Shown: positions 1,938 through 14,354 of the stretch, one piece after another | Numbering within the stretch: position 1 is the stretch's first letter | Layout: every line of letters begins with the position of its first letter | DNA from: a virus | Taxonomy: Duplodnaviria > Caudoviricetes | Virus record (IMG/VR): IMGVR_UViG_3300027785_000108 | Span: 1-28,351 of that record | Reading direction: 5' to 3' (one strand) | DNA length: 28,351 bases | Made by a program: the position numbers and the translations under genes | Notes under the pieces: model-generated | Database searches by the model: none | What the model saw: the letters and a program-made list of their open reading frames with translations, nothing else | Told to the model about the DNA's origin: nothing

Positions 1938-2273
1938 TTACTTTTTAACTTTATCTTTTATACAATTTTCTCTATTAGTAATTAATTGTATATTTTCAAT
2001 ACGATTATCTAATGGATTATTATTAATATGGTCTACTATTAATTCATAACCATTTGGTTTATGATTAAGAAAAGCCATTGCAACTAATTGGTGAACTCTT
2101 TTAGTAATAGATTTTTTTTTGTAATGAAAATTAACAATAAAATAACCAGTAGTATCCTTGCACTGTTTTAAAATTCGTTCTTTTTCACATTTTAAACTTT
2201 TTACTCTTCCAATATTACTCACTTCATACTCTCCCTCGTAATAAGGAACTGCTTTCCATTCTTCTTTTTTCAT
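1938..2273 (-). CDS. NUMOD4-HNH endonuclease
   Basis: EEWKAVPYYEGEYEVSNIGRVKS (NUMOD4) and VHQLVA..VDHINNNPLDNRIENIQLITNREN (HNH). Start moved to ATG 2273 because the upstream part of the track ORF is a structured leader. Confidence 0.9.
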   Translation of the reverse strand: MKKEEWKAVPYYEGEYEVSNIGRVKSLKCEKERILKQCKDTTGYFIVNFHYKKKSITKRVHQLVAMAFLNHKPNGYELIVDHINNNPLDNRIENIQLITNRENCIKDKVKK

Positions 2274-2283
2274 ATTTATTAAT

Positions 2284-2380
2284 AAAAAAAAACCCCACAA
2301 ATCATTAAGGTTCTCACGTCTTAAATCATTGTAGGGTTTTAAATACCTTTCGTTACTATAATGTGAGAACGTAACCGTAT
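2284..2380 (-). ncRNA. Structured leader/attenuator with two hairpins and complementary loops
   Basis: Stems GUUAC/GUAAC and AAAACCCUACAA/UUGUGGGGUUUU plus U tract; loops GUUCUCAC and GUGAGAAC are exact complements. Confidence 0.7.
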
Positions 2381-2381
2381 A

Positions 2382-2389
2382 CAAATATA
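2382..2389 (-). promoter_or_regulatory. Bacteroidota -7 promoter element TATATTTG
   Basis: Matches TAnnTTTG directly upstream of the leader. Confidence 0.7.
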
Positions 2390-2817: not shown

Positions 2818-2829
2818 AGGTGTAAAGAT

Positions 2830-2863
2830 AAAAAAAACCTCGCTAAATTAATAACGAGGTTTT
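2830..2863 (-). terminator. Intrinsic terminator
   Basis: AAAACCTCG..CGAGGTTTT stem, long T run on the minus strand. Confidence 0.75.
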
Positions 2864-2926
2864 AAGATTACACTTTTAAATTTTTGTTTAAGTATTTAAA
2901 TTTTCTCAGGATTCAAAATACTTTCA

Positions 2927-2934
2927 CAAATATA
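2927..2934 (-). promoter_or_regulatory. -7 promoter element TATATTTG
   Basis: Consensus match in intergenic DNA. Confidence 0.55.
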
Positions 2935-3178: not shown

Positions 3179-3493
3179 TTACTTAACTTTAAATGTTTGT
3201 TCAACAATACTTCTAAACTCTTTTAAATTGTCGGTGTGTTCCTGTGCAAGTTGATCTTTATCTTCGTTGCTATTCTTGTAATAAAGACTATTTGCGTTTT
3301 TCTCTAAAACTTTTATTACATCGTTGGTGAAGAACTCAGGCATCACACTATTTAATTCCTCGAAGTACTCAATGAATAAAGGAGTCCAAGTTACTATTAT
3401 ACCAATTAGCTTATCGTAGTGTTTCTTATCCTCTAAGTACATTTGCTCTCTGTATTCTCGAGCTAACTTTCTTTTGTATTTTATCTGTGTCAT
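3179..3493 (-). CDS. Hypothetical protein
   Basis: 104-aa ORF, ATGA overlap with upstream gene. Confidence 0.7.
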   Translation of the reverse strand: MTQIKYKRKLAREYREQMYLEDKKHYDKLIGIIVTWTPLFIEYFEELNSVMPEFFTNDVIKVLEKNANSLYYKNSNEDKDQLAQEHTDNLKEFRSIVEQTFKVK

Positions 3494-3918
3494 AACTTTA
3501 CTCGTTTTAAATCAGATTTTAAATTAGAAGTACATTCACGAAAGTACTTATCGGACTTTAATTTCTGATATTGTCCTAAATAGTAAATAATAGTATCATG
3601 TTTTAAGTCAAAGAAGCTTCCAATAAATTGTAGTGTCATCGTTGTATGTTGTTTTAAGTAGTTAACAAGGACTATTCGATTATAAACTAACATTTGCTTA
3701 CGGCTTCTATTTTTAAGGCCGTACAATTCAATTAAATCTAGTAACTTAATCGGTGTTTGTTCCGTTGGCTCAACTTCTTCTGTCGGTGTGTATTCCAGAA
3801 CCTCGTTTACAAAATTGTCTAGTCCATCTAAATCAAACTGTATCTTTGTGTTAAACCTAATCGACTGTAGTATATTTAGTTCTAATCCTAAGTCTTTCAG
3901 CATTTTTAAGTTTTTCAT
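3490..3918 (-). CDS. Protein with DnaA domain IV-like helix-turn-helix
   Basis: RSRKQMLVYNRIVLVNYLKQHTTMTLQFIGSFFDLKHDTIIY resembles the Bac_DnaA_C pattern; no AAA+ domain. Confidence 0.7.
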   Translation of the reverse strand: MKNLKMLKDLGLELNILQSIRFNTKIQFDLDGLDNFVNEVLEYTPTEEVEPTEQTPIKLLDLIELYGLKNRSRKQMLVYNRIVLVNYLKQHTTMTLQFIGSFFDLKHDTIIYYLGQYQKLKSDKYFRECTSNLKSDLKRVKL

Positions 3919-6980: not shown

Positions 6981-6988
6981 CAAATATA
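6981..6988 (-). promoter_or_regulatory. -7 promoter element TATATTTG
   Basis: Consensus match heading the ERF operon. Confidence 0.75.
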
Positions 6989-7808: not shown

Positions 7809-8474
7809 TCAATTATAATTTATATTAGTGAATCTTCCGTTTATATTTTCAAATGTTGTTTGCAAATCTTTTGGCAGTAAGTCTATTCCGAAAGCAAAAC
7901 AATCATAAGAAGCAAGTATTTTTTTAAAGTTTGTATTATAGTATTCACACGAAAATATTGCTTCTATCCTATGTTGGAATGAGATTACTACATCGTTTCT
8001 AAATCGTTCAAATAATTCAACTACATAATCTACATCTTTCAATTCAATTCCTCTATCTAGCCAATGTGCTTTGATTTGTTTAATATAATTATTATGCATT
8101 TTCCACATCTCAGAAAGTATAATAATTTTTAACTCCTGAGATGATAATTTATGCAAATCTTTATCTAGCAATTCCACAAACGAATCTGTACAAACATTAC
8201 ACTTAAATTTAACAAAGTCAGATGACATTCTAGATTTTGTTTCATCGTACTTTCCGTAAGAATAAAATTTAAAAAACATTGCTTCTTGTTTTACTCGTTC
8301 TAAAGTACTGAATAAATCATGACTTTTCAGTGACTTTATATCTTCCTCAACAACTTCTTTACGGTTGATTAACTTAGATATATCTTTGTGAAAATAGTAC
8401 GTTAATATACCTAAAACTATCACTATAAATAGTAAGTAAGGCGGTAAATTAATATGAGTTAAGAAATCGAACAT
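7809..8474 (-). CDS. Membrane-anchored protein in lysis region
   Basis: N-terminal TM LLFIVIVLGILTYYF followed by a helical soluble domain. Confidence 0.7.
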   Translation of the reverse strand: MFDFLTHINLPPYLLFIVIVLGILTYYFHKDISKLINRKEVVEEDIKSLKSHDLFSTLERVKQEAMFFKFYSYGKYDETKSRMSSDFVKFKCNVCTDSFVELLDKDLHKLSSQELKIIILSEMWKMHNNYIKQIKAHWLDRGIELKDVDYVVELFERFRNDVVISFQHRIEAIFSCEYYNTNFKKILASYDCFAFGIDLLPKDLQTTFENINGRFTNINYN

Positions 8475-8476
8475 TT

Positions 8477-8821
8477 TTACAAAATTATTTCAATATCACT
8501 TTCTAATATTCCAAATAGTTGGGCCATTTGTACACGAAAACCTAAATAATAAAGATATTCAGTTGCTTGTGTATAATTCAAATTACTTGGAACTTCATTT
8601 TTAACAGTTTCATATAAAGTGTTAATTTCATTTTCAGTTACATTATATACATTGTTAACTAATGATTGACTATTTTCACTTGTGTACTCAAAAATGTAAC
8701 TTGAATCAAATCCAAATCTTAATTGTTGTTGACAACCTTGTAATTTTCCTGTTACTAAACCTGTCTCTTGACCAGTTATTCCGTTATTGTAAGTTACAGG
8801 CACTAATGTTTTAATTTTCAT
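8477..8821 (-). CDS. Hypothetical protein, possibly fibre-associated
   Basis: Directly downstream of the fibre gene; role inferred from position only. Confidence 0.65.
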   Translation of the reverse strand: MKIKTLVPVTYNNGITGQETGLVTGKLQGCQQQLRFGFDSSYIFEYTSENSQSLVNNVYNVTENEINTLYETVKNEVPSNLNYTQATEYLYYLGFRVQMAQLFGILESDIEIIL

Positions 8822-11298: not shown

Positions 11299-12162
11299 TT
11301 AATAGTAAGAACGTGAATTTTTTATTTTATCATTGAATACACATTTCAATGATGGTTTATCCGTTGTATCTATGTACTCAATTTCTGCACTTTCAGAAAC
11401 AATACATGGATAATCTAAATAGTATTTAACGGGGTTTTTAAAGTTATAATCTGAAACATAAACTTCATTCTCAGACAATAAATGTAAATCAACTAAAGTT
11501 TCAATATAGTTAATAGGTATGTTTTTAGTTTCTAAATAGTATTTATTTAAATTTTCTCTCATTACCTTGTTCATTTTTCTATCTGAATAGATAATGTTAT
11601 CTACAAATGTATTAGGTTGTCTATCTCCAAAATAACCAGCAAAACGAATAGTGTCAATAACCTTTGAATTAGTAAAATCTATATTTTCAATTGATTGATT
11701 AGAATTAAATATACTTTTCAATCTAACTGTATTTTTCACCTTTAAAATATCGTATTCTTGAAGCGAATATTCACCCCATAAAATAGTATCTACTATTCCA
11801 GCAATTGTATAATCAATTTTTAATTCATAGCATCCTATACCGTTAATTTCTAGTTGTTGAGTCCAATTAACTTGACAGTATTTAGAATAACTATCATTAA
11901 CAAATGAAATAGGAGCTGGATTGTCAACTAAAATTCCTTCCTTGTATAATCTGAAAATTATAGTATCACCTGAATATGCTTTTATCCATGCTCCTGTAAT
12001 ATCTTGCTCCCAACTTTCACCGTTTATTTTTCCATAAACATTAAATGCTACACAATTACAACTATCATCAAATTCACTAGGCAATGTTAATGTACTTTTC
12101 TTTTTTGATAGTATTACTTTATTAAATACTTCAAAACCTCTATTTTCTAAATCTATTCCCAT
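11299..12162 (-). CDS. Putative tail/baseplate protein
   Basis: Position in tail module; no recognised motif. Confidence 0.65.
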   Translation of the reverse strand: MGIDLENRGFEVFNKVILSKKKSTLTLPSEFDDSCNCVAFNVYGKINGESWEQDITGAWIKAYSGDTIIFRLYKEGILVDNPAPISFVNDSYSKYCQVNWTQQLEINGIGCYELKIDYTIAGIVDTILWGEYSLQEYDILKVKNTVRLKSIFNSNQSIENIDFTNSKVIDTIRFAGYFGDRQPNTFVDNIIYSDRKMNKVMRENLNKYYLETKNIPINYIETLVDLHLLSENEVYVSDYNFKNPVKYYLDYPCIVSESAEIEYIDTTDKPSLKCVFNDKIKNSRSYY

Positions 12163-14354
12163 TCTAAGTATGTATTATTTTCAAATTGTATAATTTCACC
12201 ACTTTCAAATTCAACTGATTCAAAAGCATCGGATATAAATATTTTAGATGTTATTTTTGCATTTTTACTAAGTTTAGTTGTGTCTAGTAAACAACTAAAT
12301 GTTGTTATGTTGCTAACTGTTGAACTTGTTAATGTAGTTCCTGAGATTGGGTAAATTGGACTATTTGCGTTATTATCAAAATCAATTATAGTAGATAATA
12401 AATAACGTGGTGAACTTTCAGTTTCTTCGATAGTTATCTCTCCCCAATAATCAAAACTTGTTAATGTACTATGATTGTGAACGGCCTTTATAGTCATTAT
12501 TTCACCATCTAATAAAGCCGTTACTAAAGTGTTATCAGAACGATATAATTCAAATGTAGTACTTATTAATGATTCTGTATTATAGTCGCTAATTGGTAAT
12601 GATTTTCTATAAGTATAGTCAGTATCACTATTGCTTTGTGTAATTTTTGCTTTAATCGACCAATTACCAGTAATAAAATTTAACCAATTATTATTTTGAT
12701 TAGGATAAAAATCATTAGGAGCATTGATTTGTTCTTCCCAATATCTCCAATTATTTATGAATGGATAGTAAACAGTCCATAAATCATTAGTTAAATCACT
12801 TGTTAAGTGTGCTTTTTTCTTTGCTGAGGTAGTTGGTAAGTCATTACCTACACTTTGATATTCATTTAAGATGTATTGTCCTGAACTATTTATTGGTGAA
12901 TTTGATAAATCAAAGAATATTTTATCTAATTCAAACTCTTCAAATGTTACACTATTATAAGCAATTATTGAAAGTTTTAAACTATTCCATATATCATCAG
13001 GAACAAAATCAAAAGTAGATGTAAAGGCTAAATTATCCTCAATATTTGATTTGCTTAGAACAATACTAGATGGATTCTCAATATTATCATCATGCCTAAT
13101 AAAATATGTTAAATCATTATCTACTGTTAATGCTAGTTCATTTTCAACAAATTTTGTTAATTGATTTTTAAATACTAAATGATTAATATTTCCACATCTA
13201 ACCCAAATATAAAACAAACGATCATCTGAATCTTTGCTTTCAATAAATGAAGTGAAAGTAGGTGTAAAAGTTAAATTAATTGTTCGTACCGTTCCAACTG
13301 TTGTTATACTTGTTATTGCAATTGTATAACCTGAATTGAAATCTGCATAAGTTCCAACTGCAATTGGTACATAGGCATTTAATAAATATGATACTTTTTG
13401 TTGGTTATCTACCTTATTCTTATAATACGTTTCATCAGTTGAAATATAACAAGCACCTAAATATAAATTGCTATTACTTGAATCAATTACTATTGTTTTG
13501 TTTGAAGCAGTAGCATAATCTAAACTAGTTATACCAGTTGTTAATGTACTATTTACAACCTCAGTATTAAAAGGCTCATCAAACCATCCAGTATTTGCAT
13601 TCTCGCTAAATTCTAAAGTTTGCAAGTTTGAAATGTCTCCAGCAACTGAATAGAACGAATATTTATAACATAACTTTAAGCAAGTGCCTAAACTAAACCA
13701 ATCTTCTTTATAGATACCACTTTGAATAAACGTTGAAACTATTGTATAAACTCGTGAACTATGAGCATCTGCATTTCTAGTAAGTACTGAACTAATTAAA
13801 TATTGCCCTGATTGCTTACCAATTAATAAACCCGTTTTAGTTCCTGAAACAGATAAAGCATTTAAGTCTTTAAATTTAACCGTTGTCAACTCGCCATCAA
13901 TTAACGAGTTATAAGATGGGTTATTAGATTGGTCTATATGATTAAGATTAAAATCTAATTCATCGTAGTTTCTAGTACTTGATAATTGTAGAATGTAATC
14001 ATTTTTATCAAAATAAGCACCAACAGTTGCAGTAAATCTAATAAATGTAGCATCAACTGAATCAACTGTATATGTTCTAGTAGCATGTAAAGTCCAATTA
14101 TCTTTTTCGTATATTTTTAAACTAACTGAATCACCTATTCTAAAACCCTCTTTTAACCAACTTTTTTTACCTAATAATTGTAATTGGTCGTTTATCCAAT
14201 CAATTTGAAAACTATTAGTTGCATCTTCTTGAATTAATATATTTGCTTCAATAATAGATGTTAAAATTATCTTATCTCCAGCATTTGCCTTATATGATGT
14301 TGTAACATTTCCGAATATGTCGGTGTATGTATTACTTATTTGTTTCAGTCCCAT
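12153..14354 (-). CDS. Putative tail-tip structural protein
   Basis: 733 aa, beta-rich composition, tail module position. Confidence 0.65.
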   Translation of the reverse strand: MGLKQISNTYTDIFGNVTTSYKANAGDKIILTSIIEANILIQEDATNSFQIDWINDQLQLLGKKSWLKEGFRIGDSVSLKIYEKDNWTLHATRTYTVDSVDATFIRFTATVGAYFDKNDYILQLSSTRNYDELDFNLNHIDQSNNPSYNSLIDGELTTVKFKDLNALSVSGTKTGLLIGKQSGQYLISSVLTRNADAHSSRVYTIVSTFIQSGIYKEDWFSLGTCLKLCYKYSFYSVAGDISNLQTLEFSENANTGWFDEPFNTEVVNSTLTTGITSLDYATASNKTIVIDSSNSNLYLGACYISTDETYYKNKVDNQQKVSYLLNAYVPIAVGTYADFNSGYTIAITSITTVGTVRTINLTFTPTFTSFIESKDSDDRLFYIWVRCGNINHLVFKNQLTKFVENELALTVDNDLTYFIRHDDNIENPSSIVLSKSNIEDNLAFTSTFDFVPDDIWNSLKLSIIAYNSVTFEEFELDKIFFDLSNSPINSSGQYILNEYQSVGNDLPTTSAKKKAHLTSDLTNDLWTVYYPFINNWRYWEEQINAPNDFYPNQNNNWLNFITGNWSIKAKITQSNSDTDYTYRKSLPISDYNTESLISTTFELYRSDNTLVTALLDGEIMTIKAVHNHSTLTSFDYWGEITIEETESSPRYLLSTIIDFDNNANSPIYPISGTTLTSSTVSNITTFSCLLDTTKLSKNAKITSKIFISDAFESVEFESGEIIQFENNTYLEWE

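Follow-up and report, generated by a model that had tools for sequence, protein, structure and literature searches.

In cobalamin riboswitches, the loop of an upstream hairpin kisses the apical loop of the expression-platform hairpin (the L5-L13 contact), and this contact decides expression. In phage lambda, the promoter PR', the 6S RNA and the terminator tR' form a unit that is released by Q. In the satellite phage P4, complementary sequences (seqA, seqB and seqC, with the CI RNA) lie in the leader of the primase-helicase gene, where their pairing controls premature termination; one of the pairing partners is located near the start site, and immunity of this temperate element is conferred via a processed RNA. 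Antisense kissing control is also well known from plasmids, including ColE1 RNA I/RNA II and the attenuation systems of pT181 and pIP501, in which loop identity confers specificity and a replication gene is controlled with the participation of a terminator. In the homing endonuclease genes of the T4 family, regulatory hairpins located upstream keep expression low. Here, we describe a leader of roughly 100 nt on the minus strand of an uncultured tailed phage (Duplodnaviria; Caudoviricetes), which lies between a promoter motif and the genes for an HNH endonuclease and a primase, and which folds into two hairpins with mutually complementary loops. The stretch analysed, hereafter the window, is the complete IMG/VR virus record IMGVR_UViG_3300027785_000108 (28,351 bp, estimated completeness 84%).

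In principle, the leader resembles the cobalamin riboswitch, but it consists of only two hairpins, with no aptamer or multi-helix junction, and its kiss of 7-8 Watson-Crick pairs is, by duplex energy, strong enough to form without a ligand. It also shares features with the lambdoid phages, whose early operons are preceded by terminators (PMC9378689) and need read-through for expression, and the order of promoter, short leader and intrinsic terminator directly before the genes is the same as in the lambda unit. However, no Q-, N- or nut-like component was identified for the phage leader, its kissing loops have no counterpart in lambda, and its host and promoter type are those of Bacteroidetes. 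The put element of phage HK022, of which each genome has two copies, is a cis-acting RNA of about 70 nt with two stem-loops just past an early promoter, and it acts on termination; its stems form a V and bind RNA polymerase, and no loop-loop complementarity is reported, the word "kissing" having no occurrence in the text (PMC9378689). The likeness between put and the phage leader is one of layout only. The put element itself has no terminator, and no Rfam match to put was obtained.

A likeness to P4 can be seen in relatives of the window with leaders of the type of locus L002, which are ordered motif, complement, motif. In contrast to P4, the cultured Flavobacterium phages that carry the element are reported to be virulent (PMC7077304), for which reason we consider a P4-like lysogenic immunity unlikely, and the loops differ among the elements of one genome. 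The fully paired loops of 7-8 nt are reminiscent of plasmid antisense control, as in a sub-group of the L066 type, in which each loop is exactly the 7-nt motif. Yet in the plasmids two RNAs are transcribed from opposite strands and are complementary automatically, whereas the phage leader comes from one strand, so that each change needs a compensating mutation. Finally, a selfish nuclease gene stands right behind a structured leader, as in the T4 family, but here the leader predates the nuclease, since it is also found in relatives free of the HNH gene.

Gene timing in Bacteroidetes phages is almost unknown, and their hosts have a promoter type of their own and initiate translation without the lead of a Shine-Dalgarno sequence. 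A conserved RNA device between promoters and replication genes would give a first handle on such regulation. Its design is simple, with two hairpins and a specificity that resides in 7-8 freely exchangeable complementary loop letters, and if it does gate termination, the leaders would offer nature's own collection of RNA parts that are orthogonal to one another. Carriers of the element include dozens of uncultured phages and, among cultured phages, Polaribacter phage P12002L and 46 Flavobacterium phage records.

Anatomy of the leader

The window is AT-rich (24-38% GC), and its minus strand holds nearly all genes. On this strand, the sequence reads TATATTTG at 2389-2382, a Bacteroidetes-type -7 promoter motif of the form TAnnTTTG, which is established as a promoter in Bacteroidetes; the transcript start is predicted to lie a few nucleotides 3' of TATATTTG (2382..2389). 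After a gap of 6 nt follows hairpin 1 (2375-2352, by reading and folding), with a 5-bp stem of GUUAC (2375-2371) and GUAAC (2356-2352) that encloses a 14-nt loop (2370-2357). The first 8 nt of this loop, flush with the 5' arm of the hairpin, form the kissing motif GUUCUCAC (2370-2363). An A-rich, single-stranded spacer of 11 nt, GAAAGGUAUUU (2351-2341), leads to the terminator-like hairpin 2 (2340-2289; centroid structure -17.8 kcal/mol). Hairpin 2 is built of a 12-bp basal stem that includes one U.G pair (AAAACCCUACAA, 2340-2329, with UUGUGGGGUUUU, 2300-2289), a 4x4 internal loop UGAU/UGAU (2328-2325 and 2304-2301), a 5-bp apical stem UUAAG/CUUAA (2324-2320 and 2309-2305), and a 10-nt apical loop, ACGUGAGAAC (2319-2310). 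Within this apical loop, the second kissing motif, GUGAGAAC (2317-2310), directly adjoins the 3' arm of the apical stem, and GUUCUCAC and GUGAGAAC are exact reverse complements over 8 nt. Directly after GGGG of the hairpin 2 stem comes a tract of nine U (2292-2284), the first four of which are able to pair with AAAA at the foot of the hairpin, and the ATG of the HNH gene (2273-2271) is found 10 nt past this tract. The sequence hallmarks of an intrinsic terminator, a GC-rich stem followed by a U tract, are thus present between the promoter motif and the gene. A simple terminator scan did not list hairpin 2 because its rule allows loops of 3-8 nt only.

Most of this anatomy had been anticipated in a first reading of the window (the original prediction). 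The parts of hairpin 2, the U tract and the distance of about 10 nt to the ATG were all confirmed by reading the minus strand, as was an exact 8-nt complement between the two loops (2370-2363 and 2317-2310), and the proposed placement ahead of replication genes was borne out, with a promoter motif on the other side of the element. For hairpin 1, the stem GUUAC/GUAAC stands as described, but the complementary sequence given as its loop, GUUCUCAC, accounts for only the first 8 of 14 loop nucleotides. Tandem G.A pairs, suggested for the UGAU/UGAU internal loop, are possible in the window and in loci L004 and L038 only, and are not a feature of the family. The inability to assign the leader to a named family also held, as Rfam 15 gave no match over the whole window at the gathering threshold.

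Under permissive settings (2100-2700, E <= 10), the leader strand aligned only with the Rfam models Phe_leader (20 bits versus 55) and rnk_pseudo (15.8 versus 55), and both of these sub-threshold alignments run through the terminator stem alone. A scan for tRNA and tmRNA found none, and an exact search for hairpin 2 in IMG/VR returned 0 matches. No description of the element was found in searches of PMC and bioRxiv full text. At the level of class, we describe these sequences as an uncatalogued, widespread group of cis-regulatory leaders in Flavobacteriia phages.

Within the window alone, the match between the loops is only marginally beyond chance. The 8-mer of the loops has exactly two copies in the 28,351 bp, one per loop, where 0.60 are expected, and at least two copies were obtained in 9 of 100 shuffles; a longest-complement test on the window leader gave p ~0.07. 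The match gains its significance from the comparative evidence provided by relatives.

Loop-loop complementarity is maintained across relatives

A search of IMG/VR with the primase yielded 355 relatives, from which 80 loci were kept. In the five closest loci for which upstream sequence exists (L002-L006; 93-99% primase identity), the loop motifs change from case to case yet always stay complementary: loops 1 and 2 are CAUCCUAC and GUAGGAUG in L004, GCCUGAGAA and UUCUCAGGC in L006, AGUGCAG and CUGCACU in L002 and L003, and GGGCAU and AUGCCC in L005. More broadly, TAnnTTTG was present 70-200 nt before the ATG in 43 of 76 primase upstream regions (75 loci and the window), corresponding to 37 distinct leaders. 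Using these 37, we compared the region enclosed by hairpin 1 with the tip of hairpin 2 for Watson-Crick complement, without reliance on an alignment, both within each leader and between leaders. A leader's own pair shared a complement of at least 6 nt in 27 of 37 cases and of at least 7 nt in 21 of 37, whereas foreign cross-pairings reached at least 6 nt in only 65 of 1332 (mean 3.4 nt), many of the 65 being between near-identical leaders. The 10 misses among own pairs represent parse failures (judged by eye: L006, L062, L037, L054 and L042) or leaders of another kind (L014, L015, L019, L047, L059 and L079).

We also scanned both strands of 81 sources (658 kb) with a descriptor consisting of a 7-mer complement in two hairpin loops, the second hairpin having at least 9 pairs and an energy of -9 kcal/mol or lower. 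Among the 306 matches, 56 have TAnnTTTG at most 30 nt upstream, and 55 of these lie on the gene strand and one on the other; the matches without the promoter motif are divided 133 versus 117 between the strands, as is typical of noise. Three promoter-linked matches were discarded by eye as implausible (L043 on the minus strand, L052:1616 and L046:3171). The parsed set comprises 54 elements with 43 distinct loop motifs, and the motifs are complementary within every element. A Watson-Crick core of 7 nt is present in 25 of the motifs and one of 8 nt in the other 18; the core is rarely extended, and loop-loop duplex energies range from -6.7 to -12.7 kcal/mol (mean -9.7).

Compensatory changes are apparent in two alignments. 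In alignment A8 (the window, L004, L038 and L027b, the second leader of locus L027), the loop-loop helix joins columns 13-20 to columns 66-73 and is 100% paired across the cells, and both partners have changed in 5 of the 8 pairs. The covariation score of the whole structure was reached by 0 of 500 shuffles, and pairing fell from 90% to 34-50% when the partner was slid by 1-3 columns. Both stems of hairpin 2 covary in A8, and the stem of hairpin 1 does so too (GUUCU/AGAAC in L004). Alignment A6, which holds eight leaders of a second sub-group, likewise has a loop-loop helix that is 100% paired; two-sided changes affect 5 of its 8 pairs, and the score was attained by 0 of 500 shuffles. Two MAFFT alignments of diverse leaders, A1 and A5, were out of structural register and were left out of the pair counts. 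Recent compensation is seen in three cultured Flavobacterium phages, the leaders of which are otherwise near-identical (87% mean column identity) and differ by compensatory loop changes: the pairs are GUGGAACG/CGUUCCAC in mumin9-1, GUGAGACG/CGUCUCAC in hattifnatt9-1 and GUGAGAAG/CUUCUCAC in morran9-1.

Together, the own/foreign comparison, the two alignments and the cultured phages support selection on loop-loop pairing. The kissing pairing of the original prediction, which hinged on covariation between the loops of homologous leaders, is borne out by the covariation found in those collected here. A chance complement beside an ordinary terminator would be in keeping with the weak statistics of the window alone, but complementarity is kept across 43 motifs with compensatory changes; the comparative data refute a chance origin unless the alignments are artefactual, and we regard its probability as negligible.

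Shared architecture and spread of the leader group

The elements have a common layout. The distance from TTTG to the start of hairpin 1 is 1-14 nt in 52 of 54 parsed elements, with outliers at -1 and 14 nt, the TAnnTTTG motif itself having been a search criterion in the descriptor scan. Thus, a transcript would open with hairpin 1 right at its 5' end. Every hairpin 2 is long and composite, with a basal stem, an internal loop and a short apical stem. An 8-nt stretch after it contains at least 6 T in 41 of 48 distinct elements, compared with 23% of random same-strand stretches, and at least 7 T in 22 of 48, compared with 4.9%. In most elements, the start codon is located 5-31 nt past hairpin 2.

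The arrangement of the kissing strands within the loops takes two mirror forms. In the form shared by the window, L004a, L038 and L027b, loop 1 starts with the pyrimidine-rich strand, flush with the 5' arm and followed by 6-7 free nt, and loop 2 has 2 free nt followed by the purine-rich strand. In nine other leaders (e.g., L026b, L031 and mumin_b), this geometry is swapped, such that loop 1 has 2 free nt followed by the purine-rich strand, and loop 2 has the pyrimidine-rich strand followed by 4-5 free nt. The same kissing module therefore exists with its two hairpins exchanged. Outside the promoter motif and the U tract, alignments A5, A6 and A8 contain almost no invariant unpaired positions. 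A riboswitch was considered and rejected, as the leader consists of two plain hairpins and has no conserved aptamer. By eye, many relatives have a purine-rich motif of the AAAG/AAGA type (UAAAGA or GAAGA, often then AUAUUA) in the first ~15 nt after hairpin 1, and this single-stranded motif might be a candidate protein-binding site.

Covariance models recover the group in part. Model R1, built from the window and L038, retrieves only the window, L038, L004 and L027b, and is too sequence-specific. Model R2, built from A6 without the pseudoknot, gave 37 matches at E <= 1 in 746 kb, of which 30 coincide with descriptor elements; among them are L006, L007, L003, L019, Polaribacter phage P12002L (E = 5e-4) and both copies in mumin9-1. 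In P12002L (L082), the element is located at 34380-34477 on the minus strand, and in mumin9-1 (L083) the two copies are at 11666-11763 and 12701-12812. In these cultured phages and in the 46 Flavobacterium phage records, the element is unannotated or overlapped by small "hypothetical protein" calls (e.g., morran9-1 gp42), and the words promoter, terminator and intergenic are absent from the paper on the cultured Flavobacterium phages. On the host side, none of 151 genomes belonging to the family of a Flavobacterium metagenome-assembled genome (MAG) gave an R2 match (E <= 0.01), in a search in which only 25 candidates per genome were scored and which had no positive control. R2 matched one of three MAGs, on the contig with the phage primase.

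The element as RNA of the gene strand

The sense strand of the element folds better than the opposite strand in 45 of 54 cases, by a mean of -5.0 kcal/mol (Wilcoxon p = 1.4e-8), and this more stable fold indicates that the element acts as RNA and not as DNA. U.G pairs, in place of which the other strand would have A.C, occur in the basal stems of the window, L004, L006 and the A6 group. Together with the linkage to promoter motifs on the gene strand and the existence of copies far from any iterons, these features argue for an RNA of the gene strand.

We considered whether the element could instead be a DNA-level signal beside a replication origin, consisting either of single-stranded DNA hairpins for primase loading on both strands, as provided by ssiA and ssiB of RSF1010, or of a protein-bound inverted repeat. 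Such a signal would agree with the presence of the same 8-mer on both strands, each time in a hairpin loop, with the cluster of iterons 50-250 nt upstream (described below), and with a primase-helicase as the next ancestral gene. However, the stronger fold of the sense strand, the G.U pairs that become A.C on the opposite strand, and the placement of 55 of 56 promoter-linked elements on the gene strand are not what it would lead one to expect. In addition, SSB, HNH and unknown genes that have no iterons nearby are also preceded by copies, and the several motifs per genome would need several proteins. We thus judge a DNA-level signal to be very improbable.

A possible kissing-loop attenuator

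What could an RNA of this layout do? On the basis of sequence comparison, we lean somewhat towards the view that the leader is a cis-acting kissing-loop transcription attenuator before replication genes. Transcription would begin just ahead of hairpin 1, from TAnnTTTG. The loops would then kiss intramolecularly, and the resulting 8-bp loop-loop helix would stack quasi-continuously between hairpin 1 and hairpin 2. Hairpin 2 and the U tract would halt a share of polymerases ~10 nt before the first gene, and the kiss would set the share that terminates. Because there is no room for a promoter between the U tract and the ATG, all HNH/primase transcripts pass hairpin 2, and a stop at this position would have to be partial or conditional. 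The idea of a gate thus follows from the lack of an intervening promoter, combined with the terminator hallmarks of hairpin 2 and a selected contact between its tip and the 5' hairpin.

Two further observations shape this proposal. First, the other TATATTTG promoters of the window at 6988 and 4580 have unstructured leaders of only ~30 nt, which points to a gate rather than a general mRNA feature, and suggests that structured leaders belong to particular transcription units and not to every mRNA. Second, two elements occur in each of 10 loci, and the loop complement between them is at most 3 nt, which argues for action in cis rather than through a shared trans RNA. A shared trans-acting master RNA was accordingly rejected, given the unrelated loops among the elements of one genome.

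The direction in which the kiss might act can be guessed at from the length of the spacer. The 11-nt spacer barely spans the stack, and the kiss would consequently strain or fray the foot of the terminator stem, such that read-through is favored; alternatively, the internal loop might serve as a hinge. That the kiss favors read-through is thus a weak, geometric guess.

Several results weigh against an attenuator of this kind. In a length estimate that compares the spacer, at 6 A per nucleotide, with the sum of the hairpin 1 stem, the kiss and the hairpin 2 arm, at 2.8 A per pair, the median ratio of spacer to stack is 1.04, and the spacer is long enough in only 15 of 26 parsed elements, although the parse is noisy; in the window, the 11-nt spacer faces ~34 bp-equivalents. 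The nested fold of the window leader was matched or beaten by 13 of 200 shuffles (z = -1.75). At E <= 1, the window's own leader was not among the matches of model R2, and the window is thus tied to the wider group by shared architecture and model R1, not by one common model. The U tracts are weak in the closest relatives (UUUUGUCAUUU in L004, UUUCGUCGUUU in L006 and CUUUCAC in L002), suggesting that termination may not be the conserved function. Finally, 7 of 41 elements have a third copy of the loop-1 motif, of at least 6 nt, that adjoins or overlaps the start codon, where ~1-2 such elements would be expected by chance. These carriers come from about 4 independent lineages (L002/3; L007; L004b, at 8170-8190; and L026b/L030/L050). 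A third copy would give the terminator loop two alternative partners, and its position at the start codon suggests translational control in at least some members.

The leader could therefore be a module of the 5' untranslated region that serves translation or mRNA stability, not termination. The mRNA would be protected by its 5'-terminal hairpin and the compact kissed fold. Loop 2 could also pair with the start region in place of loop 1, such that the kiss would keep the AU-rich, Shine-Dalgarno-less start open, and the start would be closed if the kiss fails. A replication protein might also bind the leader autogenously, much as gp32 of phage T4 binds at its own leader pseudoknot. The third motif copies, the weak U tracts of the closest relatives and the location of hairpin 1 directly behind TTTG would all fit a role of this kind, and initiation in Flavobacterium is reported to be tuned by mRNA structure, without a Shine-Dalgarno sequence (abstract of PMC6847099). 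On the other hand, the window leader lacks a third copy around the ATG of either the HNH gene or the primase, and 34 of 41 elements likewise have none. The enrichment of T tracts right after a GC-rich stem would be unnecessary for translation or stability, and other promoters of the same phage manage without structure. We consider such a module an alternative, though an unlikely one.

A further alternative is that the product is the terminated RNA of ~95-105 nt itself, a stable small RNA whose loops pair between molecules or with the nascent leaders of co-infecting relatives. The loop sequence would then act as a phage-specific address; in phi29, pRNA molecules pair hand in hand in a comparable manner. 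The anatomy of promoter, 5' hairpin and intrinsic-terminator-like 3' end is compatible with a small RNA, and the loop motifs differ even among close relatives while their flanks are nearly invariant. The loops are also mutually non-complementary within a genome, and in 11 of 26 parsed elements the spacer barely spans a straight cis stack. Yet the start codon follows within about 5-31 nt, leaving no room for a promoter of its own, which is the arrangement of a leader. Moreover, proximity favors pairing in cis, and the different loops among the elements of one phage do not provide a common trans regulator. On balance, a small RNA appears quite unlikely.

Within the attenuator that we favor, the kiss could itself be a programmable address, in which a private loop pair locks or unlocks its own terminator and has diversified to avoid cross-talk with leaders of the same genome and of co-infecting relatives. 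This extension is unlikely. If true, it would define a family of orthogonal RNA gates free of protein and ligand, which might also work between molecules, in phage-against-phage interference or dosage sensing. In locus L027 (2058-2072 and 6569-6590), the loop-1 motif of the second leader, GCTTCGAC, is complementary to GTCGAAGC in hairpin 1 of the primase leader, possibly reflecting cross-talk between leaders or coincidence.

Downstream genes and insertion of the HNH gene

The first gene behind the window leader (2273-1938, minus strand) encodes an HNH homing endonuclease of 111 aa with NUMOD4 and HNH_3 domains (Pfam, 1.6e-16 and 8.3e-11; PHROG HNH), which resembles genes of Polaribacter and Flavobacterium phages. 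The primase-polymerase / DUF3987 helicase gene (1932-1, minus strand) starts 5 nt past the HNH stop codon and is truncated where the contig ends; a contig in the bin of a Flavobacteriales MAG matches the primase with 100% identity. In L002-L006, there is no HNH gene, and the leader stands directly at the primase ATG. The L004 junction runs from UUUAAUAA straight into CAUUUAUGAAAUUAGAA, while the window junction runs from AUUAAUAA through AU and the HNH reading frame (AUG to UAA) to the same CAUUUAUGAAAUUAGAA, which places the insertion of the HNH open reading frame (ORF) exactly between UUAAUAA and CAUUUAUG. Because the primase ATG directly follows the leader in close relatives, the HNH gene is a precise later insertion and the primase the ancestral first gene. 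The "HNH/primase operon" of the original prediction is thus accurate in that the leader precedes both genes, but the HNH gene is secondary, the leader being at the primase ATG in five close relatives.

The element is also not specific to primase genes. The genes right behind the elements encode primase-helicases, SSB (DUF3127), HNH endonucleases, DUF3223 proteins and unknowns. A NUMOD4/HNH gene is found directly behind a kissing-loop leader in three places, namely the window (1938-2273), L004 (8185-8697) and mumin9-1 (L083, 11765-12244), and in all three it stands ahead of the presumed original first gene of the leader. The order is leader, HNH, SSB in mumin9-1, and leader, HNH in L004 at 8068-8697. 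That HNH genes have landed repeatedly at this precise position suggests exploitation of the gate by selfish nucleases.

RNA data came from two runs, with small shares of 0.06 and 0.05, and consist of contigs of relatives only. Some of these contigs cover 2285-2389 and 2809-2936, and one extends past 2389; as contigs, they cannot show starts, ends or levels. One marine metatranscriptome contig joins 1932 to 2285 and skips the HNH gene, indicating that HNH-free relatives are present in that sample, with no bearing on expression.

Neighboring leader and iteron cluster

A fourth TATATTTG promoter (2934-2927) is followed by a second structured leader (2826-2934, minus strand), which contains an 8-bp hairpin and then a classic terminator with U8 (2863-2834). 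The loops of this leader contain no complement of at least 7 nt. Its terminator lies 16 nt before a 62-aa ORF (2817-2629), the N-terminus of which resembles a lipoprotein signal (LLSSC).

Upstream of the promoter of the kissing-loop leader, the 7-mer TGTAAAG/CTTTACA (CUUUACA in RNA) is clustered in both orientations around the palindrome TTGATAATCA (2439-2633, plus 2821-2827). The 7-mer has 21 copies in the window, where 7.6 are expected, and 0 of 100 shuffles reach 21; nine of the 21 copies fall within 2439-2633. Close relatives keep this layout with other repeats, GGTTGTCA in L004 and L005 and GTTTACA in L006. The cluster, with its phage-specific iterons, probably represents an operator array or a replication origin, and forms the context of the leader rather than part of the RNA. 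A 142-aa ORF (3490-3918, minus strand), like which gp28 of mumin9-1 is annotated, weakly matches the C-terminal helix-turn-helix of DnaA (PF08299) with an E-value of 1.3e-4, which falls short of the cut-off, and its product is a candidate iteron binder.

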